32,000 bases of DNA, taken from Candidatus Methanoperedens sp. (GTDB lineage Archaea; Halobacteriota; Methanosarcinia; Methanosarcinales; Methanoperedenaceae). Positions within the stretch are counted from its first letter, which is position 1. Every line of letters starts with the position of its first letter. The notes beneath the pieces are model-generated. The model was not told the origin of the DNA. It saw only the letters and a program-made list of their open reading frames with translations, and did no database searches. Made by a program: the position numbers and the translations under genes. Shown here one piece after another: positions 1 through 21,788 of the stretch. Location: positions 1 through 32,000 of the forward strand of contig JAPZAR010000012.1 in assembly GCA_027460535.1 (NCBI GenBank). The letters run 5' to 3'.

Positions 1-690
1 ATGAAGGAGATCGGGACAAAACGCGGTTTACCTGTTTCCGGGATGCTTGGCGGGCTTGTGAACAGTCAGGCAACGACAGGAGCCCTTGCTGCGATGGCAA
101 AAAAAAGAACCGAGTTAATAGAATCCAGTTACCTGGGGATTATCCTTTCAAATGCTGCAACGCTGGCAAGGAACATGGTCATAGCATTGATTGTAGACCC
201 GAGCGGAAAAGTGCTTTTATTGATGGCTCCTGTGCAGATTGTCATTATCCTGTTTCTCGCAGCCACAGCTATTAAATCAAGTAACCATATGGTTTCAAAC
301 GAGACAATACAATTGCAGTCCCCGTTTGCGCTATCTCCGGCGGTAAAATTTGCCTTCGGGTTCACGGCATTATCTTTTATTTCAAGATTTGCTTACCTGT
401 GGGCAGGTGTTGCAGGAGTTTACGCGACTGCGCTGGGTGGATTTATAAGTAGCGCAGTGGTAATCGCGTCGGTGACGGCGCTTGCTGTTAACCACACGGT
501 TTCATACAATACGGCTGCAATAACCGTTGTCCTTGCAAGTATAATAAGCGTAGGCAGTAATATGATATTTGTAAAATTGTCAGGACCGCCTGAACTTATG
601 CAATTGATAAAAAAGTCCTTCACCCGCTTCATAATATTTGGTACGGTTGTTCTTATTATATGGGCGATTTTAATAAATCATAACTTTTAG
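1..690 (+). CDS. Polytopic membrane protein, C-terminal part (DUF4010 / MgtC-SapB-associated type); probably truncated by the window edge
   Basis: Frame is open from position 1. The 229 aa are almost entirely hydrophobic helices rich in small residues (GGLVNSQATTGALAAMA, ALGGFISSAVVIASVTALAV), as in DUF4010 membrane domains. The family call is from memory only. Confidence 0.45.
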   Translation: MKEIGTKRGLPVSGMLGGLVNSQATTGALAAMAKKRTELIESSYLGIILSNAATLARNMVIALIVDPSGKVLLLMAPVQIVIILFLAATAIKSSNHMVSNETIQLQSPFALSPAVKFAFGFTALSFISRFAYLWAGVAGVYATALGGFISSAVVIASVTALAVNHTVSYNTAAITVVLASIISVGSNMIFVKLSGPPELMQLIKKSFTRFIIFGTVVLIIWAILINHNF

Positions 691-1078
691 GGATAATAAT
701 CGCATTTGAGGTATCATATATTCTTGCTTTTTCCATTCCAAGGATGTTCAAAACAAACACCGAAACTAACACAGGAGATAGAAGGGATACTGAGTTACAA
801 TTCACCGTAAGGGCTTATCTACTTTGGCAAAAAAGTGTCGACATGTTCACGCAGTACGAGCTAAGCTGACGCATTGATTTTTGTTTGCTTGGGTCTGGGT
901 TGTTTTATAAAATGTAAGCTCTGCTTATAAAACAAAGTTAATATTAGTTGTCTATAAAAAAGTTGTATCATTGCTCAACCAAAAACTTTTAAACTTTAAA
1001 CTCTTACCAATACGATATAAACTGAAGCATTGATTTTGATTCGGTTTTTATTCTGTTACTAAAATAAGTCCTCGAAAT

Positions 1079-1891
1079 GTGTTTAATAATATGATTATGC
1101 ATATAGATAACTACAAGGTGAAATCTAAGGACGATTTTAAGCTCTCAAAATTAGAGACTTCATCGACATTTAAGCAGCCTGAGGAAAAAGAATTAAAGAA
1201 GATGCTCCTTAATGATACGGAAAAAATAGCGGCACTTCAGTATAAATTATATGCCGAGAATCGCCAGTCTTTATTGATTATTCTACAAGGTATGGATAGT
1301 TCGGGGAAGGACGGCAGCATTAAACATATTATGAGTGGTGTTAATCCGCAAGGTGTTTTGGTTCATAGTTTTAAACATCCCTCCGATTTAGAATTAGAAC
1401 ATGATTATTTATGGCGTCATTATCAAAAATTGCCAGAACATGGACAGATAGCTATTTTCAACCGTTCGCATTATGAAAATGTACTTATCTCAAAAGTACA
1501 TCCGAAAATAGTTCTGGTGGAACGAATTCCTGGTATTGATTCCATTGAGAAAATAGACAAAAATTTTTGGGCGAAGCGTTACAAGCAAATCAATCATTTT
1601 GAAAAAAGTATTACAGAAAGTGGGACACGTATTTTGAAATTTTTTCTTCACTTGTCGAAGCAGGAACAATGTAAACGTTTTTTAGAAAGAATTGAAAACA
1701 AAGAAAGACATTGGAAATTTTCTTCCAGCGATATTATAGAGCGTGGTTATTGGGATGATTATCAAAAGGCTTATGAAAAAGCAATAATAAATACCAATAC
1801 AAAAACTGCTCCCTGGTATATCATCCCTGCTGATGATAAATGGTTCACGCATTTGTTGATTGGAAATATTATTTCGGAAGAGGCGAAGTAA
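1079..1891 (+). CDS. ppk2: PPK2-family polyphosphate:nucleotide phosphotransferase (single-domain form)
   Basis: PPK2 Walker-A LLIILQGMDSSGKDGSIKHI, lid/Walker-B region FNRSHYENVLISKVH, and C-terminal APWYIIPADDKWF. The GTG at 1079 is the first start; ATG at 1091 or 1100 are alternatives. The gene is visibly more AT-rich than its neighbours. Confidence 0.85.
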   Translation: MFNNMIMHIDNYKVKSKDDFKLSKLETSSTFKQPEEKELKKMLLNDTEKIAALQYKLYAENRQSLLIILQGMDSSGKDGSIKHIMSGVNPQGVLVHSFKHPSDLELEHDYLWRHYQKLPEHGQIAIFNRSHYENVLISKVHPKIVLVERIPGIDSIEKIDKNFWAKRYKQINHFEKSITESGTRILKFFLHLSKQEQCKRFLERIENKERHWKFSSSDIIERGYWDDYQKAYEKAIINTNTKTAPWYIIPADDKWFTHLLIGNIISEEAK

Positions 1892-1982
1892 AATAAAAAA
1901 GGCTTTGGCATGACCAGGATATTTGTCGATGAGAGGAATTTTTCTAAAAACAAAAACGCCGATAATCTGTATCGCCTTTCGG

Positions 1983-2022
1983 TATTCCTGGAATAACCCC
2001 CCAGGAATATTTTCTTATTTTC
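1983..2022 (+). terminator. Hairpin plus T-tract downstream of ppk2
   Basis: TATTCCTGG (1983-1991) pairs with CCAGGAATA (2001-2009) across a 9-nt loop, followed by TTTTCTTATTTTC. It lies in the convergent gap between ppk2 and the PPDK-like gene. Confidence 0.35.
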
Positions 2023-2066
2023 AGTTCTCATTATTTATCTACAAATTTTTATTGAATATATTACAA

Positions 2067-3656
2067 TTATATAGTACCCCAGCTTTTAACGACGTCGATC
2101 AGCGCGAGTGGCTTCTCATATACCACATCCACTTTTCCATGGTCAAGATACACTAAGCCAGCATTTCCGTCCAGGGTGATTTCATCTCCTTCAGAAAGCT
2201 CCCGTCTGCCCAGCCGGCACTTATGATTGGGAACGTCAATATCAAGATCAGTGCAGTTCACAATACAGACCTTGCCCATCTGGCGGGCAACTACTGCAGC
2301 ATGTGAGGTTCTTGCCCCGCGGGCAGTGAGTATTCCTGCGCAGATGGCGATTCCCGGAATGTCGTCAGGGGTGACCATATCCCTGACCAGGATAACAGGC
2401 CCGTCAGCAGAGAACCTTTCCGCCACCTCGCCTGTGAATGCGATTCGACCAGAGACTACACCGCTGGACGCGGATATTCCCGCAGCAAGGGGAGAATCAT
2501 GAGAGATTACCTTCTGGATGCTGATAGATTCGATATCCACTTCTCGAAGCCTCTCCCGCGCTTCCTGCGGCGAGATGATTCCTTCCTGGCACAGCTCTAT
2601 GGCAATTCTAAGAGCCGCAAGCTGCGACCTCTTTCCGTCGCGGCTCTGGAGGATATAGAGCTTCCCCTCCTGCACCGTGAACTCTATATCCTGCATATCT
2701 TTAAAATGGGATTCGATCTTCCTGCCAACAGCAAGGAGTTCCTGATCTAACTGGGGCATGGTTTCCAGCAGCTCTCTCTGTGTGACGGTTGATCGTGCAC
2801 CGGATACCACATCCTCTCCCTGGGCTCCGAACTTGAAGTCGAGCAGGAGTTCGTTCTCCCCTGTCCAGGGGTTCCTCGTGAAGGCAACGCCTGCCCCGGA
2901 ACGCGGACCTATGTTCCCATAGACCATGGCCTGCACCGTGACAGCGGTCCCGCGGACATTATTCACCAGGTTCATCTTGCGGAATGCCTGCGCCCTGGGG
3001 TTCATCCAGGACCGAAGGACTTCGACCACAGCAAGCTCCAATTGTTCATGAACGTCCTCCGGGATCTTGTGGCCTCCCTCCAGAAATATCCTTTCATATT
3101 CCCCTGCAAGGCGCTTAAGACTGCTGGATTCCAGCTCCACTTCATCCAGTGCACCCTCTTTTTTCATGGCATCCTTTAAGAGCGATCTGTATTGCCCGGC
3201 GTCATGCGAGAACACTACTTCACCGAAGTTTTCCATCAGTCTCCTGTAGCAATCCCAGGAAAAGCGGGGGTTTCCTGTCAGGGATATCATTCTCCGAAGT
3301 GTTTCCCTGTTGAGACCCACGTTCAGCAATGTATCCATAACTCCGGGCATCGTGACCGGGGCACCGGATCTCACCGATACAAGAAGCGGTTTACGTCCGC
3401 CGAATATCAGTCCTGTGGCTCTCTCAATGAATGCGATTCCCTGACGCAGGAGGTCAGGCACGTCTCCGGGGAGTCTCCCTCCATTCCGGTAGTATTCCTC
3501 GCAGATTGAAACGTTCAAAGAGAAGCCGGGTGGAACTGGAATCCCAAGTTCTGCTATTCTCGCCAGATAAGCTGCCTTATTTCCGAAATCCTCAGATGTT
3601 ATCTCGCCCTGGCGGCCATGCCCGAACGTAACCATTCTTGGAACATCGCTTGGCAT
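2067..3656 (-). CDS. Pyruvate,phosphate dikinase homologue with only the ATP-grasp nucleotide-binding and phosphohistidine swivel domains; no PEP/pyruvate-binding TIM barrel
   Basis: PPDK signatures run along the whole length: LLVSVRSGAPVTMPGVMDTLLNVGLN, GNPRFSWDCYRRL, GAGVAFTRNPWTGE, AQGEDVVSG, DMQDIEFTVQEGKLYILQSRDGKR, and catalytic-His motif TARGARTSHAAVVARQMG. It is 529 aa versus about 870-880 aa for canonical PPDK. The ATG lies 5 nt after the upstream gene's stop. Confidence 0.8.
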   Translation of the reverse strand: MPSDVPRMVTFGHGRQGEITSEDFGNKAAYLARIAELGIPVPPGFSLNVSICEEYYRNGGRLPGDVPDLLRQGIAFIERATGLIFGGRKPLLVSVRSGAPVTMPGVMDTLLNVGLNRETLRRMISLTGNPRFSWDCYRRLMENFGEVVFSHDAGQYRSLLKDAMKKEGALDEVELESSSLKRLAGEYERIFLEGGHKIPEDVHEQLELAVVEVLRSWMNPRAQAFRKMNLVNNVRGTAVTVQAMVYGNIGPRSGAGVAFTRNPWTGENELLLDFKFGAQGEDVVSGARSTVTQRELLETMPQLDQELLAVGRKIESHFKDMQDIEFTVQEGKLYILQSRDGKRSQLAALRIAIELCQEGIISPQEARERLREVDIESISIQKVISHDSPLAAGISASSGVVSGRIAFTGEVAERFSADGPVILVRDMVTPDDIPGIAICAGILTARGARTSHAAVVARQMGKVCIVNCTDLDIDVPNHKCRLGRRELSEGDEITLDGNAGLVYLDHGKVDVVYEKPLALIDVVKSWGTI

Positions 3657-3661
3657 AAAAC

Positions 3662-5569
3662 CTATCTCCCTATGCTTTCGAGAATGTTTTCATGCATGAT
3701 GCCTGCAGCATTCGTGAGAGAACTTATAGATGTCATGATACTGCGGGTAAGCTCAAAGCAAACCAATAACCCCTTATCGTCCTCACTTTCCCTGAGGATC
3801 CCTTGCACAGTTTTCCGCAGCGCCTCATCACACTCCATTTCCAGGCCCATCACACTGTCCGAAGCCCTGAGGAAGTCCGCCATCTCATCACGGTTGTAAC
3901 CTTTATGAACTTCCCGGGCAGATATGAGGGCTTTTAAGAATTCCTGACTGCACCTCTGCGCTATCTCGGCCATTGTGCGCAGATCAGCATGGACTTCCCT
4001 TGATCCTGCATCCGGGAGAATGAGTGTGGCAAAGAACGACACCTCTTCGAGATGGTCAAGCGCATCGTCAGACGCGTTAATCAGCGCGGCAAAGAACGAT
4101 GCATCTTCAATCCTCCTGGAAAGGGCTCGAACCTTCTTCACGAGTTCATCTGCCTGACCTTCCCAGACCCGGACCTTCTGCGCACTGCGGGCTGCGACGT
4201 CCCCATCACGATGGAGAAGGGAATCGCTCACCGCGGTTGCTGCTTCGATTATGAGTGATGCATGCTCCTCGCACAATCCCATGAGATCATCATATGCGGA
4301 TCCGAGCTGTCCTAAGAGCTCAGCCTTTATTTCATTATGAATGAGAGATCGGGAATTGCCGGCCAAAAGATCGGTCGCTGCCGTCTGGAGCACCCACTGA
4401 AAATATTCCATGCACTTCTCACGGCCCAATCTTTGATGAAGTGGTTCTCCGCAGGGCACAGACAGTAAAAGGGCGTCATAGATGATCCTTTCCCCGCCCA
4501 GGTTGAAGAAAGCGATATGTCCAACCTCATTGTCTGCCGCCCATTTAAGAACTGTGATGCAGTCTTTATTGGGGAGGAAGTTCCCAAGCCGCTTACGTGC
4601 CCTGTTCCAGTCGATCAGGAACACTAGCCTTGATCCAAGGTGGGTAAAGAAGGCCCCAAGATCTGTCAGGTCCCTGGCCGTATATCTCCCTGTCAAGAGA
4701 TTATATGTCTCCTTTTCGAACTGATCACCGACGCGCTTTGATAGGGTATCCTCCCACTTCACATCCCATGCGTCGAAAAGGCTCTGGAAGAATTTTAGCC
4801 TGGGCACATGAATATCTGTGTGCACGATGGAGGCAGTCATTCCTTCGATGTTCACCACCAGCACATGCGCATCGGTCAAGCCTATATCGTTCTGAATGAC
4901 GAGCCTTGAGCCCATGCGCGTGGCGGTTGTCCCCAGGCCGGCGTGATCAAATTTGAGAGGTGCTGTGCGGTTAACCCCCGCCATGAACGCCCTGACCAGT
5001 ACCCTGTCGTTCTCCTCCAGCAGGTAGGTCATGGCCCCGTTGATATTCTCCTGCGAGAGCTCTCCCTGCATGGAATTCAGTACCCTGTGCATGTCCATCA
5101 CGAGGAGGTGGAGGCTGTCCCCGCTTTTTCGGTCGCCCGAAGTTATCTTCTGGAGAAACTGCTCGCTCAGGGCTTCTTCTCCGCCATCTGGCCAGCCCTC
5201 CAGTAGCTCTGTGAATCGTTTATCAAAATCGTGCGCCTCCCCACGTGCCAGAATGGGAAGAGACATCTCCTGCATGCATGCTTTTATAGCTGAGAGTATC
5301 TCTCCTGCATAGGGAATTCGATATGTCCCGGAACCAAGTCCTTCTGCCTCCTGCACTACACTATCAAGTAGCGCATTCTCAACCCTGGCAGTTTCCCTCT
5401 CTATTTTAAGACTGGGGAATTCACGGTCCGGATGCAGAGCACTGGACTGGGCTGTCTGGAGCAGCGTGAAATAGTACTTAATCCTGTCATTGGCCACAAG
5501 CGCCGCGTTCACTAGCTCAGGCAGGAGGAACTCTTCTTCGCCCATCTCTTTCAGGATATTCTTCTTCAT
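3662..5569 (-). CDS. 635-aa protein: unrecognised ~430-aa N-terminal region plus C-terminal PhoU_div/DUF47-like helical bundle
   Basis: The ORF track extends to 5680, but ATG 5569 (MKKNILKEMGEEE) forms an ATGA start/stop overlap with the upstream gene. The C-terminal ~200 aa align by eye with the window's own DUF47 protein (21111-21740): EGQADELVKKV/EHQGDDFVHEI, FAALINASDDALDHLEEVS/ISALASAFDDVLDYIDGTA, GLEMECDEALRKTVQGIL/RLENIADDIYKTSVAQLF. Confidence 0.6.
   Translation of the reverse strand: MKKNILKEMGEEEFLLPELVNAALVANDRIKYYFTLLQTAQSSALHPDREFPSLKIERETARVENALLDSVVQEAEGLGSGTYRIPYAGEILSAIKACMQEMSLPILARGEAHDFDKRFTELLEGWPDGGEEALSEQFLQKITSGDRKSGDSLHLLVMDMHRVLNSMQGELSQENINGAMTYLLEENDRVLVRAFMAGVNRTAPLKFDHAGLGTTATRMGSRLVIQNDIGLTDAHVLVVNIEGMTASIVHTDIHVPRLKFFQSLFDAWDVKWEDTLSKRVGDQFEKETYNLLTGRYTARDLTDLGAFFTHLGSRLVFLIDWNRARKRLGNFLPNKDCITVLKWAADNEVGHIAFFNLGGERIIYDALLLSVPCGEPLHQRLGREKCMEYFQWVLQTAATDLLAGNSRSLIHNEIKAELLGQLGSAYDDLMGLCEEHASLIIEAATAVSDSLLHRDGDVAARSAQKVRVWEGQADELVKKVRALSRRIEDASFFAALINASDDALDHLEEVSFFATLILPDAGSREVHADLRTMAEIAQRCSQEFLKALISAREVHKGYNRDEMADFLRASDSVMGLEMECDEALRKTVQGILRESEDDKGLLVCFELTRSIMTSISSLTNAAGIMHENILESIGR
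5373..5447. repeat. Copy A of a ~75-bp duplicated segment (inside the 5' part of the 635-aa gene)
   Basis: GCATTCTCAACCCTGGCAGTTTCCCTCTCTATTTTAAGACTGGGGAATTCACGG... matches 11134-11207 in the same orientation. By hand alignment 53 of the first 56 positions are identical, followed by weaker similarity with a 1-nt indel. Confidence 0.85.
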
Positions 5570-7080
5570 GGTACAAGGTCTAATGAAATTGCGAGGTCCC
5601 GATTGAATACCTTCTCGAACAGATCTCCTTTTTTCATGGCTCTGTCCTTCTCGGTTTCTGCTTCCCCTGAAATAGCACAATTGACAATCACCTGCTCGGG
5701 GGAAACCTCAGATGTGATATCTTTAACAAGGCTCTGCTGCGTGAAATCCAGTCCGTCCGCCACGCGAAGAATCGCTGACAGCGCCTTTACTTTCTGCCGC
5801 TCGTCCCGTCGCAGAGCAGCAAAGTACCGGTGCCCTTTATTTGGAAGTTCTCTCCTGTGGTAACGGGCGATTGAACCTACGATATTTCGTTCCCTTTCGT
5901 CAAAGGGAAGGTGCGGCTCGGCAAGGATGATGCGGAGTGAGGTCTTGTGATGCCCCTTCTGCCCTTCGATCCACCCGATATCATGAAGTATGCCGGCACA
6001 CTGGAGCCAGAAGCGTTCCTCGGCACCGAGGCCGTGAAGCTCTCCGAGTTCATCGAAGAGCCGCATAGCCAGCCTTGTCACCTGACTACTGTGCCCCTCA
6101 TTATAGGAAACGCTGCGAGCTGTCTTCCGAACTTCCTCCAGGCGGTTTTCATTCTTCTTTGATAGTTCCTGAGCCACCGCATCTGGTGATAGCCCCTGAA
6201 GAGTCATCTGGGCGAAAACCTCAGGAAGGCCGTTTTCCCGTATGGCTGCTGCGGCTTTCTCCACGTCATAGTCGACACGGTAGTGTTTCACTTCAAAGGG
6301 GTTTATCCACAGGATCGCGTAGCTGGCTCGAGGATCACCATCATCCTGCCTTCCTGCGCCCCCGGGGTTAATAAACCATACACCATCAACCTGACGGGAA
6401 AAGGGACGGTGCGAATGCCCGAAGATTATCACGTCAGCATCAGCGAGAAGAGCAAACTCACGAAGTTTTTCATCCGGCGTTTCAGGGCCTATTTCGGGCA
6501 AAGGGCTCCTGTGGGTAAGAAGTATTCGCTTTCCTCCAGCCTCCAGTCTGAGTTCCTCAGGCAGAGATTTGAGGTATTTGCGGTTCTTCTTAGAAAGATT
6601 GTTATATGTCCACTTGATGGCATTCCAGTCTTCAGGCGACTCTTTTTTCTCTCCCTCCTCTTCCTCTTTCTTTTCCTTGACCTTCAGAACCTTGAGGTCA
6701 TAGTTCCCAACCACGCTCTGGGCGTTCTCCTTGCGCAGTCTCCTGACAACATCATCCGGAAAAGCACCGTACCCCGTTAGGTCACCCACATTCCATATCT
6801 CTGAAACCTCTCTGTTGCTGGCATCTTCCAGGACAGACTTCAGGGCAGGCAGGTTGGCATGAACGTCCCCAATGAGTAGAAAGGCTTCGTGTTCTGCGGG
6901 TTGGGATAACTCCAGAGCAGGCAGGTTTGCAGTTTCTTTTTCTGCCTCAGCTTTCTTTATTTTTGTTTCTGCTTTAGCAAGTTTAGGTTTTGTCGTACTT
7001 CGCAGTATTTTAGGTCTCTCTTCCCACCACGAAGATACTTTGGTGTTCTTGCTTTTTTTCTTATCTTTCATATATTTCAC
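5566..7080 (-). CDS. Fusion protein: Lys-rich N-terminal tail, calcineurin-like metallophosphoesterase (YfcE/MJ0936-like) and PPX/GppA-type C-terminal HD module
   Basis: MPP motifs GDVHAN, VGDLTGYG, GNYD, LLTHRSP, GHSHRP, INPGGAG. The C-terminal ~190 aa parallel the C-terminus of the Ppx in this window: LHDIGW/LHDIGG, IARYHRRELPNKGH/VARFHRKKLPKRKD, ILRVADGLD/LLRLAEKLD. Confidence 0.75.
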   Translation of the reverse strand: MKYMKDKKKSKNTKVSSWWEERPKILRSTTKPKLAKAETKIKKAEAEKETANLPALELSQPAEHEAFLLIGDVHANLPALKSVLEDASNREVSEIWNVGDLTGYGAFPDDVVRRLRKENAQSVVGNYDLKVLKVKEKKEEEEGEKKESPEDWNAIKWTYNNLSKKNRKYLKSLPEELRLEAGGKRILLTHRSPLPEIGPETPDEKLREFALLADADVIIFGHSHRPFSRQVDGVWFINPGGAGRQDDGDPRASYAILWINPFEVKHYRVDYDVEKAAAAIRENGLPEVFAQMTLQGLSPDAVAQELSKKNENRLEEVRKTARSVSYNEGHSSQVTRLAMRLFDELGELHGLGAEERFWLQCAGILHDIGWIEGQKGHHKTSLRIILAEPHLPFDERERNIVGSIARYHRRELPNKGHRYFAALRRDERQKVKALSAILRVADGLDFTQQSLVKDITSEVSPEQVIVNCAISGEAETEKDRAMKKGDLFEKVFNRDLAISLDLVP

Positions 7081-7089
7081 ACTCCATAC

Positions 7090-8088
7090 TTATTTTACTT
7101 TTGCCTGATTCTTAGATTTTTCATCGAATGTTAACTGGATAAATTGCTTCGTGTCATTCCATATATTCTGCTCCTGAATATCTTTCCAGTATGCTACAAA
7201 CTCCTCGTATATCGCAGAACGGCGCTCGCGCAGATGCTGCTGGAAGTGCAGCAGTCCGGGCTCAAGAATCCCAAAGGAGTCGTCCTGCCCGAAATAATCA
7301 AGAGAATATGCCCGTTCATCATCCATGAATTGAGGCAAATATTCCATCCATACATCGCAGTCGTGCAGATCTCCGAGCATATCCTGGAGTTTTTTGCAGA
7401 CCAGAAGCTGGTTCTCCAGTTCCTCCTCGTAAAGGGGTGAAAACACCTCCATCGTGTAGCGAAGGCGCTTTACAGCAATACGCATGGCATGGTGCTCTTT
7501 TATATTTTCAGGGATGTAAACTGAGGCTTCATGAGCGAATATCTCATCAAGCCGCGTTGTTATGTGGACAATCGCTTTTTGATAAATCTTTGGAGAATTG
7601 ACTTCAGCTCTACCCTTGCGCATCTTACGGCACAACTTTTCCATATCCTCCGCCACGCCACTCTCATGAAGCCTGTCAATGGCCTCGATCACACGCGGTT
7701 GCGTCCGCTCCCTGCGCTGCCTGAGGCGCAGGAGGAAGCGCTGCGCACCAGGGCGGAGGCTTTCCTCTTTTAGCTTCTCGGTGTATGCCTTAAGGAAAGC
7801 TATCTGCACATCTGCATCCCGTGCCTCCCTAAGAGCGCGAGTGATATTGCGGATCTCTTTTCGCCAGTCCCTGTACTTCTTAGGAGGGAAACACTCTTCA
7901 AAAAGTGGAAGGCAGGAGCGGATCCGCCTTGATGCGACTCGCATCCTGTGAATGAACTCAATGTCCTTCGCCTCACGCACGCCTTCTATCTCCCTGGAAA
8001 GGGACCGAAGAAGCGGGCGAAGTCTATCCGCTCCGAAAAGGCAATATCCAGTGAAGTTTTTCAGAGATCCTTTCCTCTTAGAAATCAC
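7090..8088 (-). CDS. CHAD domain-containing protein
   Basis: Helical protein with CHAD signatures FIHRMRVASRRIRSCLPLF and HHAMRIAVKRLRYTMEVF. The GTG start at 8088 overlaps the ppk1 stop by 11 nt. Confidence 0.8.
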   Translation of the reverse strand: MISKRKGSLKNFTGYCLFGADRLRPLLRSLSREIEGVREAKDIEFIHRMRVASRRIRSCLPLFEECFPPKKYRDWRKEIRNITRALREARDADVQIAFLKAYTEKLKEESLRPGAQRFLLRLRQRRERTQPRVIEAIDRLHESGVAEDMEKLCRKMRKGRAEVNSPKIYQKAIVHITTRLDEIFAHEASVYIPENIKEHHAMRIAVKRLRYTMEVFSPLYEEELENQLLVCKKLQDMLGDLHDCDVWMEYLPQFMDDERAYSLDYFGQDDSFGILEPGLLHFQQHLRERRSAIYEEFVAYWKDIQEQNIWNDTKQFIQLTFDEKSKNQAKVK

Positions 8089-10321
8089 CGTGCCACAACC
8101 CCCTGTTCCCGATCAGCCACTCCTGCGAATTCATCTCTTTCTCTCCGGGAGAAAGTGTAACGCGCTCGTACGTACTATCGCTCAATAACCGCCTTGCTTT
8201 TACATTGTCCTTCAGGTGGACATTGAGTATATCCTTGATTATCACAGATTTTATATCCGGATCCTCCACAGGGAAGAGCGTTTCCACCCGGTCGTCAAAG
8301 TTCCGTGTCCTGAGGTCCGCACTTCCGAGCAGGACCTCTTCATCCCCGCCGTTTCTGAAATAGTATATTCGTGCGTGTTCGAGAAAACGTCCTACAATGG
8401 ATGTTACAGTGATATTCTCACTTACCCCCGGAATTCCGGGGCGAAGGGCGCACAGGGCGCGCACGTTCAGGTCGATTTTTACACCTGCTTGAGACGCCCT
8501 GTAAAGAGCCAGGATTATCTCCATGTCAGTTATGCCATTGTTCTTGAATGCCATATATCCGTCCCCGTGCTCTCTATGGCGTGTGATCTCTCTTTCGATG
8601 CGTCCCAGGAATTCCCGTCGCAAATCATAAGGCGCAACAAGGAGTTTGTGATACTTCTGCTTTCCATAATAACCTGTGAGTGCGTTGAAGAGGTGGGACA
8701 TATCTGCACAGATCTGCGGGTTGCAGGTAAAGTAGCCAAGGTCGCCATAGATCCTGGCTGTGACGGAATTGAAGTTCCCCGAACTAAGGTAACCGTATCG
8801 GATTATTTCCTTTCCTTCTCTCCTGACAACAAGGCATAATTTGGCATGAACCTTCAGTCCCGGTCTCCCGTATACCACATGCACACCCGCCCGCTCAAGT
8901 GCATGCCCCCACCCAATATTTTTTTCTTCATCGAAGCGCGCTGTCAGTTCCACAACAACAGCCACCTGCTTACCATTCTGCCGCGCCTTAATAAGTGCAT
9001 CAATGACGGGGGAATTGGCATCGATCCGGTAAAGCGTTATTTTTATAGCCAGCACATCAGGATCCTGTGCAGCCTGATGTAAGAATTTGATAAAGGGCAA
9101 AAAACTGTCATAAGGATAGTAGAACAGGACATCACGGTTGCGCATAGCCGGGAAAATTCTTTTTTCGTTATCTAAGAATGAAGGATTTGAAGGAAGAAAC
9201 TGTTTATCCTTCAGATCGGGGCGGTCCAGTCTCATCAATTCCCATAAATCTGCAGTCCCCATGATACCCTCTATATCACTGACCAGGTAGGAAGGCAGTG
9301 CAAGTTTATTGGCAAGCATGTGACGGATGTCGTCGGGCATGGATACATCCACTTCAAGCCTCACTGGCGGCCCGGTACGGCGAAACTCCATACTTTCCTC
9401 AACCTGGGTCGCAAGGTCATACTCCCCATTCAGATGAGCCTTAATTTCAGAATCGCGCGTGATGCGGAAAGGATACGATGCAACCACTTCCATGCCCGGG
9501 AAGAGCATGTCCAGATTTGCGGCAATGAGATCTTCAAGCAGGACGAAGTGGGTGTTTTTCCAGCTGGCAGCGCTGTGTTCGGTATTCTTACCGTTTTCCA
9601 CTTCCGGCACACCGATAAAGCGCGGGAATAAACAGGTGGGTACCTTGACGCGTGCAAACATTTGTTTTTCAAAGTTACCTTGAGTTACCCTGACCACAAC
9701 AGCAATATTGATCGTGAGATTGGAAATGAATGGAAAAGGATGAGCCGCATCGAATGCCAGAGGGGTTAGGGTCGGAAATATTTCATATTCGAAGAAGCGT
9801 CGCAGAAGAACCTTCTGTTCTTCCTCAAGGTCGCTATATCTGTCGATATGGATACCTTCGCTGTGGAGCTTTGGTAAGAGTTCATACCAGCCGCGTGCAT
9901 GATCAGCAATAAGTGGAATTAACTCTTTTTGAATCGCTTCCAGTTGTTCTGACGGTGACATCCTGTCAGGGCGTGCTTTGACCGTCCCTGTGGCACGCCG
10001 CAGGGATGAAACCCGAACCATGAAGAACTCATCGATGTTGCTTCCACAAATAGCCAGAAACTTCACTCTTTCCAGGACTGGCTGGCGCTCATCCATTGCT
10101 TCCTCAAGCACCCGCTGATTGAATTTGAGCCAGCTAAGCTCACTATTGATGAAGTTTCCGGGATCATCAAGAGAAACGCTTTCCGTACTGATTTTCAATG
10201 GCTTTTCAATAACACTCTCCTCGGAATTTATATCCATCTGTTGTTTTTCCATAATACAGGCATCCTGTTGATCAGTAGTAAATTTTCGACATCCCAATCC
10301 CGAAACTCCCTTTCTCATCAT
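8078..10321 (-). CDS. ppk1: Polyphosphate kinase 1
   Basis: Full-length PPK1 similarity: FINSELSWLKFNQRVLEEA, VKFLAICGSNIDEFFMVRV, TPLAFDAAHPFPFISNL, the phospho-His region GLKVHAKLCLVVRRE, and C-terminal PLD-like domains. The true start may be the internal MEKQQMD, 23 codons downstream. Confidence 0.9.
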   Translation of the reverse strand: MMRKGVSGLGCRKFTTDQQDACIMEKQQMDINSEESVIEKPLKISTESVSLDDPGNFINSELSWLKFNQRVLEEAMDERQPVLERVKFLAICGSNIDEFFMVRVSSLRRATGTVKARPDRMSPSEQLEAIQKELIPLIADHARGWYELLPKLHSEGIHIDRYSDLEEEQKVLLRRFFEYEIFPTLTPLAFDAAHPFPFISNLTINIAVVVRVTQGNFEKQMFARVKVPTCLFPRFIGVPEVENGKNTEHSAASWKNTHFVLLEDLIAANLDMLFPGMEVVASYPFRITRDSEIKAHLNGEYDLATQVEESMEFRRTGPPVRLEVDVSMPDDIRHMLANKLALPSYLVSDIEGIMGTADLWELMRLDRPDLKDKQFLPSNPSFLDNEKRIFPAMRNRDVLFYYPYDSFLPFIKFLHQAAQDPDVLAIKITLYRIDANSPVIDALIKARQNGKQVAVVVELTARFDEEKNIGWGHALERAGVHVVYGRPGLKVHAKLCLVVRREGKEIIRYGYLSSGNFNSVTARIYGDLGYFTCNPQICADMSHLFNALTGYYGKQKYHKLLVAPYDLRREFLGRIEREITRHREHGDGYMAFKNNGITDMEIILALYRASQAGVKIDLNVRALCALRPGIPGVSENITVTSIVGRFLEHARIYYFRNGGDEEVLLGSADLRTRNFDDRVETLFPVEDPDIKSVIIKDILNVHLKDNVKARRLLSDSTYERVTLSPGEKEMNSQEWLIGNRGLWHGDF

Positions 10322-10400: not shown

Positions 10401-10898
10401 TCAAGCGCATGCATCCACGGTATTTACTGCGCTCTGTGTCTCGGATTCATACTCTTCTCTTACAAACCCTTTTGAGACTTCAAACAAATCAGAAAGCCAT
10501 TTCTTACCATTATCATGGAAAATGATGGGAAGCTTCGCTTCCAGCGGTTTAAGCCTGTTTAAGAACTGCCCAACGGTCTCGGATTCGATCAGAATCTGGC
10601 AGAAGGGGTGCTCTGGATACGATATGCTGATCGCCTTAAGATAGACTAAAGGATCGCCGCCGTTCTCAATGAACTTACACATCATCTTAATGGGTGTGAA
10701 TTCAACATTGGTCGCTTCTTTGCCATTATCTGCAACACCTTCCACCATTCTGATAAAGTTATCCCAGCCGTTGCCATTCTCCCATTTTTTAAACCTCTCT
10801 TCAATGAGTAAAATGTCTCTTCTGTGAATCTTCTGAATGAGCTGGAGATCTTTCCTGTAAATCTCTTCTTTGAATAGCTCGATATTATCTAATTTCAT
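10401..10898 (-). CDS. Hypothetical protein (165 aa), no recognisable domain
   Basis: Clean ATG-initiated ORF, AT-rich. It ends 79 bp upstream of ppk1 on the same strand, and a copy of the TATAGATT-N12-TATATA module lies upstream of it. Confidence 0.5.
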   Translation of the reverse strand: MKLDNIELFKEEIYRKDLQLIQKIHRRDILLIEERFKKWENGNGWDNFIRMVEGVADNGKEATNVEFTPIKMMCKFIENGGDPLVYLKAISISYPEHPFCQILIESETVGQFLNRLKPLEAKLPIIFHDNGKKWLSDLFEVSKGFVREEYESETQSAVNTVDACA

Positions 10899-11120: not shown

Positions 11121-12770
11121 TTATGCATGCAGTGCATTCTCAACCCCGGCAGTTTCCCTCCCTATTTTAAGACTGGAGAATTCACGGTTCCAATGAGAGC
11201 CCTGGATTACATTCAAATTGAGCTTCCTCCTGAATATTTTTTCGAATGCTTTCACATTCGACTCTACACCCCACACTTCAAGCTCGCAGCCGCCATCAGG
11301 CCATATAGCGAGATCGACTTTTGTTCTATCTTTCCCGGTGAATTCTGCCTTTTTTACGAGGCAGGTATGGCTTCTGTCGAGTTTCTCAGCAAGGCGCAGC
11401 AGCATGGATAGGATAATCACGGTATTCGCAGAGTGCTCATCGAGCAGAGCTAAAGCCTGGTCCTTTCTCTTTGGAAGCTTCTTCCTGTGGAACCTGGCAA
11501 CGTTTGCCATTATATTTATCTCGATCTGGTCAAAGCCGGGGAGCTCTGTGTTGCCTATTATGTAATGCGAGTGGAGATGATGACTTTTAAATGCTATGAA
11601 GCCGCCGATATCGTGCAGGAACGAAGAGTACTTCAATAGCTCCCTCTCCCGTTCATCCATGTCGTGCAGCCCGATCCTCCTAGAACTGTCAAAAAGCGAA
11701 AGTGCAAGAGATATGACAGCGTTGGCGTGCCGCTCGTTGATATTGCATGATCTTCCAAGCTGGAGCACGCTCATCTCCCTGACAGACATCTCCTGGAACT
11801 GCGGAAACCCTTCATGTTTTGACAGGTAATCCATGAGCATTCCGTGGACTATGCCCCTGTCGCTGATTGTAATCTCTTCAAGCCCGAACTCCTCCATTAT
11901 TGTCTCGAGGATAGCAGCGCCCCCAACGATTATGTCCGCTCTCTCGGGGTTGATTCCCTGGATCTTCTTTCTCTCATCGAGGGCAAGCGCGCAGAGTGTC
12001 GAAACTACCTTCCTTAGATTCTTGTAGTTCAGGACAAGGTTTCTTCCTGCGCCGTCCCGTTCATGCAGATTCATCGCTATCTCGGCCAGGTTAACGATAG
12101 TGCCTGAACTTCCGAAAGCGCACTCTATCCTCGCACTCTTCATGAATTGAGCTGTTTTGAGAATTCTGTTCTTGATGTACAGCTTCATCCTTGCATAAAC
12201 ATCCTGTGGCACAGGTGCTGTCCCCCCATCCTGAATGAACCTAGTAGTGAGCCTTATTGCCCCTAGTTCGAAGCTGTCGACGTAATATTGCTGGAACTGA
12301 TCGCCTATCGCAAGCTCCGTGCTCCCTCCCCCTATATCGATGAAGATTGCCTTCCTCTTGCCAATATGGACTCCGCTCGAGACCCCAAGATAGATGAGAC
12401 GTGCCTCTTCCTTTCCAGGTATGACCCTGACTTCCAGCTTCGCCTCATCTTTTAGCTGTTCAAGGAATTCTACCTGGTTTTTCGCCTCCCGTGCCGCAGA
12501 AGTGGCTATAGCGATAATCTCTCCAGCGCCGAAGGATTTTGCGAGTTCCGCGAACTTTTTGCAAACCAGAACCGCTCGCTCCATTGCCTCTGGCTGGAGG
12601 TGATTGCTCTTGAACTCGTTCTCGCCGAGCCTGACAACCTCCTTCTCCTGCCGCAGCACAGTATACGAATGATTGGGGTTGAGTCTGACGAGTATAAGTC
12701 GGATAGAGTTTGTCCCAATATCTATGAACGCCAGTATCTTTTCCTCAAGTTGATCAAGGTGCATTCTCAT
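11121..12770 (-). CDS. ppx: Exopolyphosphatase / guanosine pentaphosphate phosphohydrolase family (Ppx/GppA) with C-terminal HD domain
   Basis: ASKHA N-terminus AFIDIGTNSIRLILV, FIDIGGGSTEL, then HD module FLHDIGGFIAFKSHHLHS and VARFHRKK. The ORF is open to 12905, but the first 45 codons are AT-rich and low-complexity, so ATG 12770 or 12764 is preferred. The last ~25 codons come from a duplicated DNA segment (see repeat features). Confidence 0.85.
   Translation of the reverse strand: MRMHLDQLEEKILAFIDIGTNSIRLILVRLNPNHSYTVLRQEKEVVRLGENEFKSNHLQPEAMERAVLVCKKFAELAKSFGAGEIIAIATSAAREAKNQVEFLEQLKDEAKLEVRVIPGKEEARLIYLGVSSGVHIGKRKAIFIDIGGGSTELAIGDQFQQYYVDSFELGAIRLTTRFIQDGGTAPVPQDVYARMKLYIKNRILKTAQFMKSARIECAFGSSGTIVNLAEIAMNLHERDGAGRNLVLNYKNLRKVVSTLCALALDERKKIQGINPERADIIVGGAAILETIMEEFGLEEITISDRGIVHGMLMDYLSKHEGFPQFQEMSVREMSVLQLGRSCNINERHANAVISLALSLFDSSRRIGLHDMDERERELLKYSSFLHDIGGFIAFKSHHLHSHYIIGNTELPGFDQIEINIMANVARFHRKKLPKRKDQALALLDEHSANTVIILSMLLRLAEKLDRSHTCLVKKAEFTGKDRTKVDLAIWPDGGCELEVWGVESNVKAFEKIFRRKLNLNVIQGSHWNREFSSLKIGRETAGVENALHA
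11134..11207. repeat. Copy B of the ~75-bp duplicated segment (3' end of ppx, up to 13 bp from its stop codon at 11121-11123)
   Basis: GCATTCTCAACCCCGGCAGTTTCCCTCCCTATTTTAAGACTGGAGAATTCACGG... On the minus strand it encodes HWNREFSSLKIGRETAGVENAL, versus HPDREFPSLKIERETARVENAL in the 635-aa protein. Confidence 0.85.
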
Positions 12771-12951
12771 ATAATTATAATCATGATTAGGTTCTATTAT
12801 ATCATGTTTTCTACCGTTGCCATTTCCATCCCCTTCAATACGGTCTGGGCAAGGACTCAACTTGCTAAAATTAAAGCCCCCACAAAATGTTTTCATAGCG
12901 TTCATTCAAGTGTTAATTAAATCTTAGTCAGAGGTTTTTAAATAACTTATG

Positions 12952-13601: not shown

Positions 13602-14495
13602 ATGGAAAATATCGAACAGAAGAATCATATTGGCAAAGCAGATATTCACGTACACACCAGGTATTCAGGGTTCGGACAATGTTCTTTTATTCATTTCCCT
13701 GAATCTGTTACCGAGCCAGTTAAAGCCGTCGAGGCTGCCCGCAGGAAAGAACTTGATGTCCTTTGCATAACAGACCACAACACAATCCGGGGTGCTATCA
13801 TCGCCCAAAAACATTCACGGGATATCGAGGTTGTAGTTGGAGAAGAGATTTCAAGCGCAGACGGAGAGATCCTGGCGCTGTTCATCCAGGAAGAGATCAA
13901 ACCCATGCGCAGCGCTCCTGAGACTATAGACCTTATACACGGCCAGGGAGGTATTGCTATAGCTGCACATCCTTTTAGCCCATATTGCCACTCTCTCGAA
14001 ACTAAAATACATAATTTAAAACTGGACGGAGTGGAAGTATTCAATGCATACCATCGTGATGCCTACTCTAATTTAATGGCCCAGACCTTCACTTCAGGAA
14101 GACTGGCAAAGCTGGGGAGCAGCGATGCCCATTCAATAAATATGATAGGCAACGGATACACAATTTTTGAGGGAAAAACCTCAGAGGAACTTAGGAAATC
14201 CATCATAAACAGAAAAACCTCCTTTGGCGGAACAAGAACGCCTCTGTCAGAATGCATTTCGTGGAGCAAAGAAATAGCCTCGGAGAGCATTAAAATGATT
14301 TATGATTCCCTGACAGGAGAGAAAAGCCAGGACATATTATACTTGGAAATAGATAAAACTACAAGAAGGACCAAAGCCCTGGGATTGATTGGCGCTGCAC
14401 TGTATATCGGGCTACCATTATCGTATTTTTTCGGTGTCTCGGGGGAAATTATCTTGAATTTAAAGGGTAAAAGAAAATGGAATGAGAACATATAG
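13602..14495 (+). CDS. PHP-domain metal-dependent phosphoesterase with C-terminal transmembrane anchor
   Basis: PHP motifs ADIHVHTRYS, CITDHNTIRGA, GEEISSADGEILALF, IAAHPFSP, GVEVFNAY, GSSDAHS. C-terminal hydrophobic helix ALGLIGAALYIGLPLSYFFGV. Confidence 0.8.
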   Translation: MENIEQKNHIGKADIHVHTRYSGFGQCSFIHFPESVTEPVKAVEAARRKELDVLCITDHNTIRGAIIAQKHSRDIEVVVGEEISSADGEILALFIQEEIKPMRSAPETIDLIHGQGGIAIAAHPFSPYCHSLETKIHNLKLDGVEVFNAYHRDAYSNLMAQTFTSGRLAKLGSSDAHSINMIGNGYTIFEGKTSEELRKSIINRKTSFGGTRTPLSECISWSKEIASESIKMIYDSLTGEKSQDILYLEIDKTTRRTKALGLIGAALYIGLPLSYFFGVSGEIILNLKGKRKWNENI

Positions 14496-16620: not shown

Positions 16621-17724
16621 ATGAATCGATTAAAGATAATACTAATTTTGATTCTGGCAGGCGTGCTGGTAGCTGGGTGTGTAAGCACGCCGCCTGCCCA
16701 AGTACAGCCTACAGTACAAACAACGGCGCAGCCTCCGGCAACTATAACCTTAAATGGTGCGGGTGCAACATTTCCATACCCTCTGATATCCAAATGGAGT
16801 TCGGAACATAGCAAAATAAATCCAAATATCCAGATCAATTATCAGAGCGTGGGAAGCGGTGCGGGAATACAGCAGATAACTGCAAAAACGGTAGATTTTG
16901 GCGCAAGTGATGCGCCTCTCTCAGAGCAGGTATATAAAAATCTTACAGGCATCCTGCAAATACCCGAAACCATAGGTGCAGTGGTCGTAGCGTATAACCT
17001 GCCCGGCATACAGAAGGGAGTGAATTTGAGCGGCGATGTAATTGCTGACATTTTCCTTGGAAAAATCACAAAATGGAACGACCCGAGGATAGTCTCACTT
17101 AATCCTGATATTCAATTCCCGCCAAAAGACATTATCGTAGCACACAGGAGCGATGGAAGCGGCACGACTTTCGTATTCACGGATTATCTTTCAGCGGTAA
17201 GCCCTGACTGGAAATCACAGGTTGGAAAAGGTACATCAGTCAACTGGCCTGTCGGTCTTGGCGGGAAAGGCAACGAGGGCGTTGCAGGTATCTTGAGCCA
17301 GAACCCTTACGCTATAGGGTATGTCGAACTTATCTATGCCAAGGCTCAGAACAACATCTCCTATTCATATATCAAGAACAAGGCAGGGATATTCATTGAA
17401 CCCACACTTGAGACAACGGCAAGCGCCGTTGCTGGAGCTGTGCCAACGCTGCCCGCAGGCGACGCAAGCTGGTCATCCGTAAGTGTTGTGAATGCCCCGG
17501 GAGACAATTCATACCCCATAAGCAGCTTTACCTATCTTCTTGTCTACAAAAACCAGGCAGAACTGACCAAGGGTAAAGCACTGGCTGAATTCCTCTGGTG
17601 GGCAGTACACGATGGACAGAGTTATTCCTCCGATCTCCAGTATGTGACGCTGCCAAAAGAAGTCGTAAGTCTGAATGAAAAAACCATAAAACTTATGAAC
17701 TACAACGGACAACCGCTAATCTAG
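16621..17724 (+). CDS. pstS: Phosphate ABC transporter substrate-binding lipoprotein
   Basis: Signal peptide with lipobox LVAGC, then PstS pattern GAGATFPYPL, YQSVGSGAGI, DFGASDAPL, HRSDGSGTT. Confidence 0.9.
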   Translation: MNRLKIILILILAGVLVAGCVSTPPAQVQPTVQTTAQPPATITLNGAGATFPYPLISKWSSEHSKINPNIQINYQSVGSGAGIQQITAKTVDFGASDAPLSEQVYKNLTGILQIPETIGAVVVAYNLPGIQKGVNLSGDVIADIFLGKITKWNDPRIVSLNPDIQFPPKDIIVAHRSDGSGTTFVFTDYLSAVSPDWKSQVGKGTSVNWPVGLGGKGNEGVAGILSQNPYAIGYVELIYAKAQNNISYSYIKNKAGIFIEPTLETTASAVAGAVPTLPAGDASWSSVSVVNAPGDNSYPISSFTYLLVYKNQAELTKGKALAEFLWWAVHDGQSYSSDLQYVTLPKEVVSLNEKTIKLMNYNGQPLI

Positions 17725-18729
17725 ATGGATAGATCGAGATTGCCTTCTTTCCGTATCAGCCGGAGCAAACTCTCAGGCGATTTTATTTTTGAAGCTGTAG
17801 TCGGCTCATTTGCTCTGGGAATAATAATCCTTGCAATTTTATTGTTCAGGGAACTTTTTATAGAGTCTCAACTTTCAAGAGATGCTTTTGGCACGGGTTT
17901 TTTGACAGGTTCTGTATGGGATCCAGTGAAAGAGGTATTCGGCGCCCTGCCTTTTATCTTCGGGACTCTTGTTTCATCATTCCTTGCCCTGCTCATAGCT
18001 GTCCCATTTAGCCTCGGGATAGCGATATTTCTCTCAGAACTCGCTCCGGAAAAGCTGAGGACGCCCCTATCTTTCATCATAGAATTGCTTGCCGCCGTCC
18101 CAAGCGTCATTATCGGGCTCTGGGGCATATTCATTCTCGCCCCGTTCATCCACGACTATCTTGCGCCGCCTCTTTCAACATATCTTGGTTTTCTGCCGCT
18201 CTTCCAGGGACCAATGTACGGTCCGTCCATGCTTACCGGTGGCATGATACTTGCAATAATGATTATCCCGATAACCTCATCGGTGTCTAAGGAAGTCCTC
18301 ATGACAGTGCCGACGCAACAGCGGGAAGCAGCCATCGCTCTCGGCGCTACAGGCTGGGAGACCACACGGATTGCGGTACTCCCCTATGCCAGATCTGGAA
18401 TATTCGGGGCGGTAATTCTTGGATTTGGACGTGCTATCGGCGAAACAATGGCAGTAACCATGGTCATCGGGAACAGCCACCACATCAAGGCATCCCTTTT
18501 CGCGCCATCAGATACCATGGCATCGGTTATTGCAAACGAGTTAATGGAGGCACCGTCCAAGCTTTACGTCTCATCTCTTATTGAGATCGGGTTTTTGCTT
18601 CTGGTGATATCCGTCATAATCAACATAGCAGCCAGGATTTTGGTGTGGAAGTTTGATGAATCCAATGATATCCACCTTTTTAGACGGATTCGTCAAATGC
18701 TTAATGTGGAAGGAGGCGAGAGGGCATGA
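17725..18729 (+). CDS. pstC: Phosphate ABC transporter permease PstC
   Basis: Polytopic permease with the EAA-type loop REAAIALGATGWETTRIAVLPYARSGI. The ATG directly follows the pstS stop. Confidence 0.9.
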   Translation: MDRSRLPSFRISRSKLSGDFIFEAVVGSFALGIIILAILLFRELFIESQLSRDAFGTGFLTGSVWDPVKEVFGALPFIFGTLVSSFLALLIAVPFSLGIAIFLSELAPEKLRTPLSFIIELLAAVPSVIIGLWGIFILAPFIHDYLAPPLSTYLGFLPLFQGPMYGPSMLTGGMILAIMIIPITSSVSKEVLMTVPTQQREAAIALGATGWETTRIAVLPYARSGIFGAVILGFGRAIGETMAVTMVIGNSHHIKASLFAPSDTMASVIANELMEAPSKLYVSSLIEIGFLLLVISVIINIAARILVWKFDESNDIHLFRRIRQMLNVEGGERA

Positions 18730-19562: not shown

Positions 19563-19578
19563 GAATAGGAGTATAAAA

Positions 19579-20337: not shown

Positions 20338-20338
20338 T

Positions 20339-20992: not shown

Positions 20993-21110
20993 CATTCTCC
21001 CTTTGTCGCAAGAACCATACGTACTTATAATCCGTATGAATAACGAAGTCTTCATTATAAATGGAAAACGATTTTAGCTATAACTTAATTTAGGATAAGG
21101 AGATTGAAAC

Positions 21111-21740: not shown

Positions 21741-21788
21741 GAGGCGATCGTTCTGGAAATTTTCGTCATCTTTACTATTATCATTGCC

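Follow-up and report, generated by a model that had tools for sequence, protein, structure and literature searches.

Why does a gene that resembles pyruvate, phosphate dikinase (PPDK) come to its end before the TIM barrel in which PPDK holds phosphoenolpyruvate (PEP) and pyruvate, and what could the protein do without it? The question is raised by an open reading frame (ORF) of 529 amino acids on the minus strand of a 32,000-nucleotide stretch of Candidatus Methanoperedens sp. (positions 1 to 32,000 of contig JAPZAR010000012.1; the whole stretch is called the window here). The gene, referred to below as the short PPDK, is an intact and widely conserved short form. It is also half of a widespread two-gene system, which makes it more interesting than first noted; the other half, encoded directly upstream, is a partner protein that ends in a PhoU/DUF47-like domain. 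Together they probably make up a phosphoryl-transfer system, so far undescribed, that is connected with the metabolism of phosphate and polyphosphate. The short PPDK and its parts are as follows.

2067..3656, minus strand: short PPDK-like protein, ATG start and TAA stop; ATP-grasp domain, linker 1, swivelling phosphohistidine domain and C-terminal tail helix, no TIM barrel
2622..3656, minus strand: ATP-grasp nucleotide-binding domain, about residues 1-345 (PPDK alignment, conservation)
2142..2501, minus strand: central swivelling His domain, about residues 386-505 (PF00391 over residues 420-500; match to the phosphoryl carrier domain 2fm4)
2303..2301, minus strand: codon of the catalytic His452, in GARTSHAAVVAR, with T450 two residues ahead
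2070..2141, minus strand: C-terminal tail, residues 506-529, a strand and a helix at the place of PPDK linker 2 (AF2, conservation)

In this protein Pfam recognises PPDK_N (PF01326, E 2.8e-40) and the PEP-utilizers mobile domain (PF00391, E 1.3e-21), and the same scan finds no PEP-utilizers_C (PF02896), hence no PEP/pyruvate TIM barrel. The NCBIfam PPDK model TIGR01828 is covered over 14-505 of its 865 positions only, with 513.3 bits against a cut-off of 843.45; four bacterial and one Nitrososphaerales short PPDKs score 493-574 bits against the same cut-off. With phmmer, residues 7-504 align to residues 4-509 of Flaveria PPDK (5jvn) and residues 24-504 to residues 18-506 of the Clostridium symbiosum enzyme (1kbl), and identity to the solved PPDKs is 36-39%. 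Residues 445-462 read ...TARGARTSHAAVVARQMG..., and GARTSH452AAVVAR is aligned with GGMTSHAAVVAR of 5jvn. The AF2 model (pLDDT 87.5, pTM 0.84) is placed on 1kbl by Foldseek with a TMq of 0.86 over 532 columns. PPDK proper (EC 2.7.9.1; 1KBL, 5JVN) thus shares with the short protein the ATP-grasp domain, linker 1, the swivelling His domain with its TSH motif and the linker-2 element, and the residues that we take to line its nucleotide and phosphate sites are kept. It differs in having a PEP/pyruvate TIM barrel of ~340 amino acids and in having no PhoU-like partner. With the barrel missing and the score below the cut-off, the short PPDK is not a member of PPDK proper. A preliminary description, made from the DNA letters and their ORFs, had placed the similarity through the catalytic His up to the linker, had found the PEP/pyruvate-binding domain absent and had called the start coupled. 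Pfam, phmmer and the superposition on 1kbl bear out the first point, and the missing PF02896 and the partial TIGR01828 coverage agree with the second; as to the third, the upstream TAG (3664..3662) is followed after 5 nt by the ATG at 3656, with GGGAGA 9 nt 5' of that ATG.

The chain ends in ...PLALIDVVKSWGTI directly before the stop codon, and in the model its last 25 residues make a strand at 510-514 followed by a helix at 517-528, in the place of linker 2 of C. symbiosum PPDK (about residues 505-533). In Flaveria PPDK the central domain covers amino acids 380-515 (PMC5371819), and the tail of the short protein sits just beyond it. The tail has a family signature, (E/K)(R/K)P-x2-L-x6-W, and is a candidate docking or hinge element.

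Does the protein stop there because something has cut it? Truncation by an insertion had been left as a live alternative in the preliminary description, in which the end of the gene was seen to meet the switch into an AT-rich segment with a ppk2 gene. By this account the short gene would be the decaying remnant of a full-length PPDK. The coincidence itself is confirmed by the GC profile: GC content is 0.50-0.57 within the short PPDK gene and 0.27-0.36 across 750..2100, the stretch holding ppk2, and the end of the gene also meets a break in homology, since DNA similarity to related Methanoperedens contigs stops at window positions 2048-2078, at most ~20 nt from the stop codon. The same end point recurs, however, in ~70 loci of Archaea and Bacteria irrespective of the downstream sequence: in all of these the stop codon falls 0-24 residues past window residue 526, and in the related locus L003 the end is identical with no ppk2 downstream. 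The best 120 database homologues (55-91% identical), from Methanoperedens-like archaea, Methanoregulaceae, Methanoculleus, Methanolinea and Methanocella, are all 501-553 amino acids long, and no relative among these 120 homologues and the ~70 loci has a longer or full-length PPDK at this locus. The tail is conserved as well. Among 70 family members from Archaea and Bacteria, P516 and W526 are at least 97% conserved, and the same holds for K27, R96, E325, Q337, R339, T450 and H452 and for A453 and R458. The first seven of these internal residues we take to be K22, R92, E323, Q335, R337, T453 and H455 of C. symbiosum PPDK, a correspondence on which the PDB titles 'K22A' (1jde) and 'R337A' (2dik) bear. 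Compared with three Methanoperedens orthologues, dN/dS is 0.15-0.28 for the short PPDK (0.23-0.25 for the partner); the gene is under purifying selection. Homologue lengths, the common end point, selection and the conserved tail together rule out truncation by the ppk2 insertion, and the probability left to a decaying remnant is negligible. The homology break at 2048-2078 is the native end of the gene and operon, and the short length is ancestral to the family, because the best 120 homologues and the ~70 loci share it.

Some loci depart from the common end point. In L012, a Methanoregula metagenome-assembled genome (MAG), the short PPDK (4322..7276) reads on into a flavin amine-oxidase/NAD-binding domain to give 984 amino acids in total, which could be a genuine fusion or else an artefact of assembly or of a frameshift. 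L071 has a low-complexity extension of 43 amino acids, and L008, L033 and L039 have frameshifts or stops, all three in error-prone MAGs.

If the protein is whole, does it work alone? The preliminary description proposed a functional stand-alone ATP-grasp/swivel-His module. A functional module with a clean boundary is what the lengths, the end point, the tail and dN/dS support, but it does not stand alone: it is one half of a conserved pair and is sometimes fused to the other half, which is laid out as follows.

3662..5569, minus strand: partner protein, 635 amino acids, directly upstream of the short PPDK (homologue lengths, pairing, fusions)
4298..5569, minus strand: partner N-terminal domain, alpha/beta, about residues 1-424 (no Pfam, NCBIfam or PDB match)
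3665..4297, minus strand: partner C-terminal PhoU/DUF47-like helical domain, about residues 425-635 (Foldseek, PF01865 in homologues, motifs)

A partner profile was run against one genome per species and gave at least 546 confirmed relatives, of which 79 loci were fetched. These comprise 74 paired loci, four that end before a short PPDK could appear, and L053, in which the partner is followed by an unknown ORF of 336 amino acids on the opposite strand and by gyrase A. The partner is a near-obligate neighbour: the short PPDK lies directly downstream of it on the same strand in 74 of the 75 informative loci, and a reverse check starting from short-PPDK proteins found the partner upstream in five out of five. 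Carriers among the Archaea are Methanoperedens, Methanomicrobiales, Methanosarcinales, Methanomassiliicoccales and Nitrososphaerales/Nitrosopumilales, and among the Bacteria numerous Betaproteobacteria (Thiobacillus, Ca. Accumulibacter, Ca. Methylophosphatis), Geobacteraceae, Dongiaceae, Planctomycetota and Acidimicrobiia/Acidimicrobiaceae. An exhaustive HMMER search recovered natural fusions of the two proteins, namely P0262 (1205 amino acids), P0287 (1200) and P0306 (987, cut), in the order N-domain, PhoU_div, PPDK_N and PEP-utilizers with a low-complexity linker between the halves; the two complete ones, P0262 and P0287, keep the RP..L..W tail end and still have no barrel. There is no third conserved neighbour among the ORF clusters of 80 loci (the 79 and L001). 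Only the pair genes and their antisense shadow ORFs form clusters found in more than 20 of these loci; after them come clusters confined to particular lineages (Pyr_redox_2 in 12 loci, an NrpR-like regulator in 8). The conserved pairing and the fusions point to one functional unit.

As to the extent of the partner, mechanical ORF calling gives 3662..5680 on the minus strand, with a TTG start at 5680, 672 amino acids and an overlap of 115 nt with the upstream gene. This start is probably wrong and the ATG at 5569 the real one, because homologue lengths agree with it and because it overlaps the upstream TGA as ATGA. The homologues number in the thousands and are ~647 amino acids long, with lengths of 635-650 amino acids, and several database entries of 667-672 amino acids probably carry the same over-extension.

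What kind of protein is the partner? With hmmscan it has no Pfam or NCBIfam match, and no PDB sequence matches it. An AF2 model of the full-length protein (pLDDT 83), built on an alignment of archaeal sequences only and the source of the N-domain fold given here, has helices and beta-hairpins followed by a PhoU bundle. Foldseek matches are limited to the C-terminal part, where the last ~210 residues hit 3l39 (E 4.8e-4, TMt 0.85) and also 4q25, 2iiu, 1t72 and 2i0m; for the N-domain Foldseek gives nothing, and neither does a profile search against PDB sequences. The PhoU-like domain carries E/D-x3-D motifs (E470..D474, D501/D502..D505/E508 and E577..D581/R585), in which E470/D474, D501/D505/E508 and E577/D581 are at least 96% conserved in 74 sequences. 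The window partner itself has no Pfam match at E <= 1. PF01865 is found in the homologues P0262, P0287, P0306 and P0284 with E 1.6e-8 to 1.2e-4 and 22-35 bits against a gathering threshold of 24.4, which some of them reach and others do not, and P0208 and P0212 carry a precomputed match to it. BLASTP between the partner and the canonical DUF47 protein of the window gives E 0.003, with the DDxLD motif aligned. Altogether 76 partner positions are at least 96% identical across the 74 archaeal and bacterial sequences. Those in the N-domain include D151, H154, H161, H209, T215, Q226, N227, D228, T232 and H235, and further D252, H254, R257, D320, W321, N322, R325, K326 and H351; six His and four Asp were counted among the N-domain invariants. 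Between Archaea and Bacteria the N-domain is 38-60% identical, as conserved as the kinase. Residues of this kind make it a candidate second active site or acceptor site.

One could also imagine a canonical PPDK in two pieces, with the TIM-barrel domain encoded elsewhere and assembling with the short PPDK, whose sequence is after all 36-39% identical to the N-terminal two thirds of true PPDKs. This we regard as very unlikely. PEP-utilizers_C occurs neither among the larger window ORFs that were scanned nor among the recurrent neighbour clusters and scanned ORFs of the 79 loci; the constant neighbour is the PhoU-like partner instead, and it is this partner to which the kinase is joined in the natural fusions, which stay barrel-less. 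In its AF2 model the partner does not fold as a (beta/alpha)8 barrel. A cryptic TIM barrel within the partner was rejected on the same model, and because Foldseek, Pfam and the PDB-sequence profile find nothing PPDK-like there.

Which processes does the pair keep company with? Polyphosphate genes lie within ~6 kb of it in 11 of the 79 loci and Pst, PhoU or PhoR genes in 8 more, so that phosphate genes, of the CHAD, PPX, PPK or Pst/Pho types, are frequent neighbours (19 of 79 loci, several phyla). As examples, the genes directly upstream of the partner are CHAD and PPX in members of the Geobacteraceae (L057) and Dongiaceae (L061) and PPX in Thiobacillus (L068, L078), and genes for CHAD-Metallophos or CHAD-PpxIII fusions are found near the pair in Methanoculleus, Methanomicrobiaceae and Methanoregula. 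Such genes make up, by our rough reckoning, well under 1% of a genome, and they would therefore be enriched several-fold near the pair, a rough estimate and not a computed control.

Several known families combine parts of this architecture. Rifampin phosphotransferase (RPH; 5HV1, 5FBS), glucan water dikinase and the prodigiosin ligases PigC/RedH follow the same logic of an ATP-grasp domain, a swivelling His domain and a family-specific acceptor domain. In these, the acceptor domain is in the same chain and unrelated to the partner, and sequence similarity is 12-18%; RPH, moreover, has its rifampin-binding domain between the ATP-grasp and His domains, whereas the domain order of the short PPDK follows PPDK. 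Foldseek recovers RPH with the short PPDK at E 1e-10, and the NCBIfam model NF041857 gives 49 bits against a cut-off of 999. PEP synthase (pyruvate, water dikinase) and Enzyme I of the phosphotransferase system (PTS) likewise use phosphohistidine chemistry and contain the mobile His domain PF00391, but have the PEP-utilizers_C barrel that the short PPDK lacks; PEP synthase models (TIGR01418, NF005057) score 89-104 bits on it against cut-offs of 598-740, with no PF02896. On the partner side, PhoU/DUF47 proteins resemble the C-terminal 210 residues in their helical fold (3l39, TMt 0.85), E/D-x3-D motifs and phosphate-related context. Members of the known PhoU clades are either small proteins that stand alone or parts of transporters, and each clade goes with Pst, Pit or NptA (PMC13170248). 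Unlike these, the PhoU-like domain of the partner is fused to a novel domain of ~420 amino acids, and the partner is paired with a PPDK-type kinase and not with a Pit gene; the PiT neighbour in the window is the canonical DUF47 protein at 21111..21740. Our literature searches found no described PPDK-DUF47 or PPDK-PhoU pairing.

The closest in layout is VadK (Rv1127c) of Mycobacterium tuberculosis, likewise a two-domain protein with no PEP/pyruvate domain. The NCBIfam model NF004531 (PRK05878), which we assume to represent the VadK family, gives 401 bits for the window protein and 404-445 bits for five other family members, against a cut-off of 456. The short-PPDK family is set apart from VadK by its partner and by a polyphosphate and Pho context: prp genes are not among the recurrent neighbours of the pair in the 79 loci, and in the window the neighbours are polyphosphate and Pho genes. 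Membership in this presumably VadK-like family was rejected on the score and on the different context. VadK is a truncated PPDK with ATP-binding and His domains only, which autophosphorylates on His with ATP and Mg2+ and has been proposed to modulate methylcitrate-cycle enzymes by binding; its gene adjoins methylcitrate-cycle genes (prpC, prpD, prpR), and it has no PhoU-like partner (PMC13400623).

How, then, might the two proteins work together? On balance we lean towards a two-protein dikinase of the PPDK type, acting in phosphate and polyphosphate homeostasis, in which the partner takes the place of the TIM barrel. In a first step ATP would bind to the ATP-grasp domain, His452 would take its beta-gamma pyrophosphoryl group and AMP would leave; phosphate (Pi), as in PPDK, or possibly water would then remove the gamma-phosphate as pyrophosphate (PPi) or Pi, leaving His452~P. 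Conserved residues and the biochemistry of PPDK and VadK suggest this step. In a second step the His domain would swivel on linker 1 and the conserved C-terminal tail and dock on the upstream-encoded partner, whose N-domain, with its invariant His, Asp, Arg and Lys, would serve as second active site and pass the phosphoryl group to an acceptor. In a third, the PhoU/DUF47-like domain of the partner would tie the reaction to phosphate status, as its fold and gene context suggest. A more specific version seems possible but doubtful to us: the pair would be an unrecognised PPDK-type dikinase, with a probably metal-dependent acceptor domain of new fold joined to a PhoU-like phosphate-binding domain, and would carry out a new ATP/AMP/PPi-linked phosphoryl transfer within inorganic phosphate chemistry, the group being moved to or from, for instance, Pi, PPi, polyphosphate or a component of the polyphosphate granule. 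It would then be a new enzyme shared by several hundred or more species of Archaea and Bacteria, among them methanogens, ammonia-oxidising archaea, Methanoperedens and the phosphate-accumulating Accumulibacter.

Several points weigh against a two-protein dikinase in phosphate metabolism. We infer each of its chemical steps, the interaction of the two proteins (the docking purely so) and the connection with phosphate. In three quarters of the loci there is no phosphate gene within 6 kb, and in Methanoregulaceae the pair has trp genes, an NrpR-like regulator and a flavoprotein for neighbours. L053, a Methanospirillum MAG with the partner at 5905..7941 and no adjacent short PPDK, is the sole true exception to pairing among the 75 loci. 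PhoU-family proteins are known as regulators, not as enzymes (PMC13170248), and VadK, the only truncated PPDK characterised, is proposed to be regulatory (PMC13400623). Because of these last two points, a signalling role without any small-molecule acceptor is a serious alternative, if a less probable one. The short PPDK would then act like VadK as a phosphorelay or sensor, autophosphorylating according to the balance of ATP and Pi against AMP and PPi and binding or phosphorylating the PhoU-like partner on an invariant His, Thr or Asp. The outcome would be a modulation of polyphosphate turnover or of the uptake of phosphate, and no metabolite would be phosphorylated. The precedent of a truncated, autophosphorylating VadK proposed to regulate partner enzymes by binding (PMC13400623) speaks for such a role, as do the PhoU/DUF47 fold of the partner and its invariant loop FDHPGLGTTATR, which could accept a phosphoryl group. 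It fits less well that no transporter or two-component gene is consistently adjacent, and that the partner N-domain is as conserved across domains of life as the kinase. The numerous invariant His and Asp of this domain, too, would be expected in a catalytic or metal site rather than on a docking surface. The family also scores below the cut-off of NF004531, assumed here to be VadK-like, and has another gene context. An enzymatic acceptor site is modestly favoured over a regulatory role, because the partner is dense in invariant His and Asp and is conserved between domains of life as an enzyme would be.

The database labels of short-PPDK genes, such as 'pyruvate, phosphate dikinase', 'PEP synthase' and 'PEP/pyruvate-binding domain-containing protein', have a direct consequence. 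Judged by their domain content, short PPDKs cannot interconvert PEP and pyruvate, and because of these labels they may be wrongly credited with it when the metabolism of methanogens, Methanoperedens, Nitrososphaerales and polyphosphate accumulators is reconstructed. New with respect to the papers we searched is the combination of a PPDK-derived phosphohistidine module with a PhoU-like protein bearing a new domain, recurring beside CHAD, PPX, PPK and Pst genes. As an enzyme, the pair would add a reaction to phosphate, pyrophosphate or polyphosphate metabolism; as a regulator, it would give PhoU-type domains a fourth context and the VadK principle a second case, one that is far more widespread.

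The 32-kb window as a whole is a polyphosphate/phosphate island. Apart from the pair, its features are the following.

11121..12905, minus strand: exopolyphosphatase (PPX) of the Ppx/GppA family, head of the same-strand string (Pfam PF02541, PF21447)
10401..10898, minus strand: ORF of 165 amino acids between PPK1 and PPX (no Pfam, NCBIfam or PADLOC match)
8078..10321, minus strand: polyphosphate kinase 1 (PPK1; Pfam PP_kinase N, middle, C1 and C2 domains)
7090..8088, minus strand: CHAD-domain protein (Pfam PF05235, E 3.8e-54)
5566..7080, minus strand: metallophosphoesterase and HD (Ppx-GppA domain III) protein, by Pfam; its stop overlaps the partner start
1946..2007, minus strand: hairpin (UAUUCCUGGGG...CCAGGAAUA), second small hairpin and U5GU5 run, 3' of the short PPDK stop (RNA fold -27.3 kcal/mol, z = -2.98)
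1079..1891, plus strand: PPK2-family polyphosphate kinase in the AT-rich segment, convergent with the short PPDK (Pfam, NCBIfam)
16621..22754, plus strand: PstS-PstC-PstA-PstB-PhoU, then DUF47, then PHO4/PiT (window ORF scan)
21111..21740, plus strand: canonical stand-alone DUF47/PhoU_div protein, adjoining PHO4/PiT
21789..22754, plus strand: PHO4/PiT transporter, adjoining DUF47

The minus-strand string runs from PPX through the unknown 165-aa protein, PPK1, CHAD and the metallophosphoesterase-HD protein to the partner and the short PPDK, with PPK2 convergent at its end. CHAD is a family associated with polyphosphate granules. In L003 and L028 a counterpart of the 165-aa ORF, 74-77% identical in amino acid sequence, occupies the same place, and the ORF may encode another polyphosphate-related protein. 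The protein at 5566..7080 combines a calcineurin-like metallophosphoesterase with the Ppx/GppA HD domain III behind a Lys-rich N-terminus, and in Methanomicrobiales related genes are fused to CHAD, as CHAD-Metallophos or CHAD-PpxIII (L007 11690..13696, L025 396..2426, L009 3552..5387); for polyphosphate-related phosphoesterases the metallophosphoesterase-HD and CHAD fusions are unusual architectures. PADLOC has no matches for four of the operon proteins, and an anti-phage defence system was rejected. Downstream of the short PPDK, the hairpins and U-run at 1946..2007 might plausibly be an operon terminator in the convergent intergenic region; a scan of this 3' region for intrinsic terminators of the bacterial type found none.

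The segment with ppk2 (691..2066) has a GC content of 0.27-0.36 against ~0.52 in its flanks. At the window position, L028 and L010 carry a convergent ppk2 with only 49% amino acid identity to that of the window, and in L003 (1..274) a 97.8% identical ppk2 fragment lies at the other end of the polyphosphate operon, next to the 165-aa gene. The ppk2 gene is thus a variable neighbour outside the conserved pair, and the neighbourhood differs between strains and does not reflect a single insertion event.

In Methanoregulaceae and Methanolinea (L001, L082, L084 and others) the pair lies within a conserved block, with tryptophan biosynthesis genes and a GHMP-kinase-like gene on one side, and on the other a convergent Pyr_redox_2 flavoprotein, a protein of ~320 amino acids with no Pfam match and the NrpR-like regulator. 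The window itself holds three PhoU-superfamily proteins in three contexts, namely Pst, Pit and the PPDK-like partner. Two proteins of the PHP-domain phosphoesterase type (13602..14495 and 23090..23734, both plus strand) flank the Pst/Pit block and may be further members of the phosphate island. Beyond the AT-rich segment, a partial DUF4010 membrane protein (1..690, plus strand) runs off the start of the window, and normal GC content resumes there.

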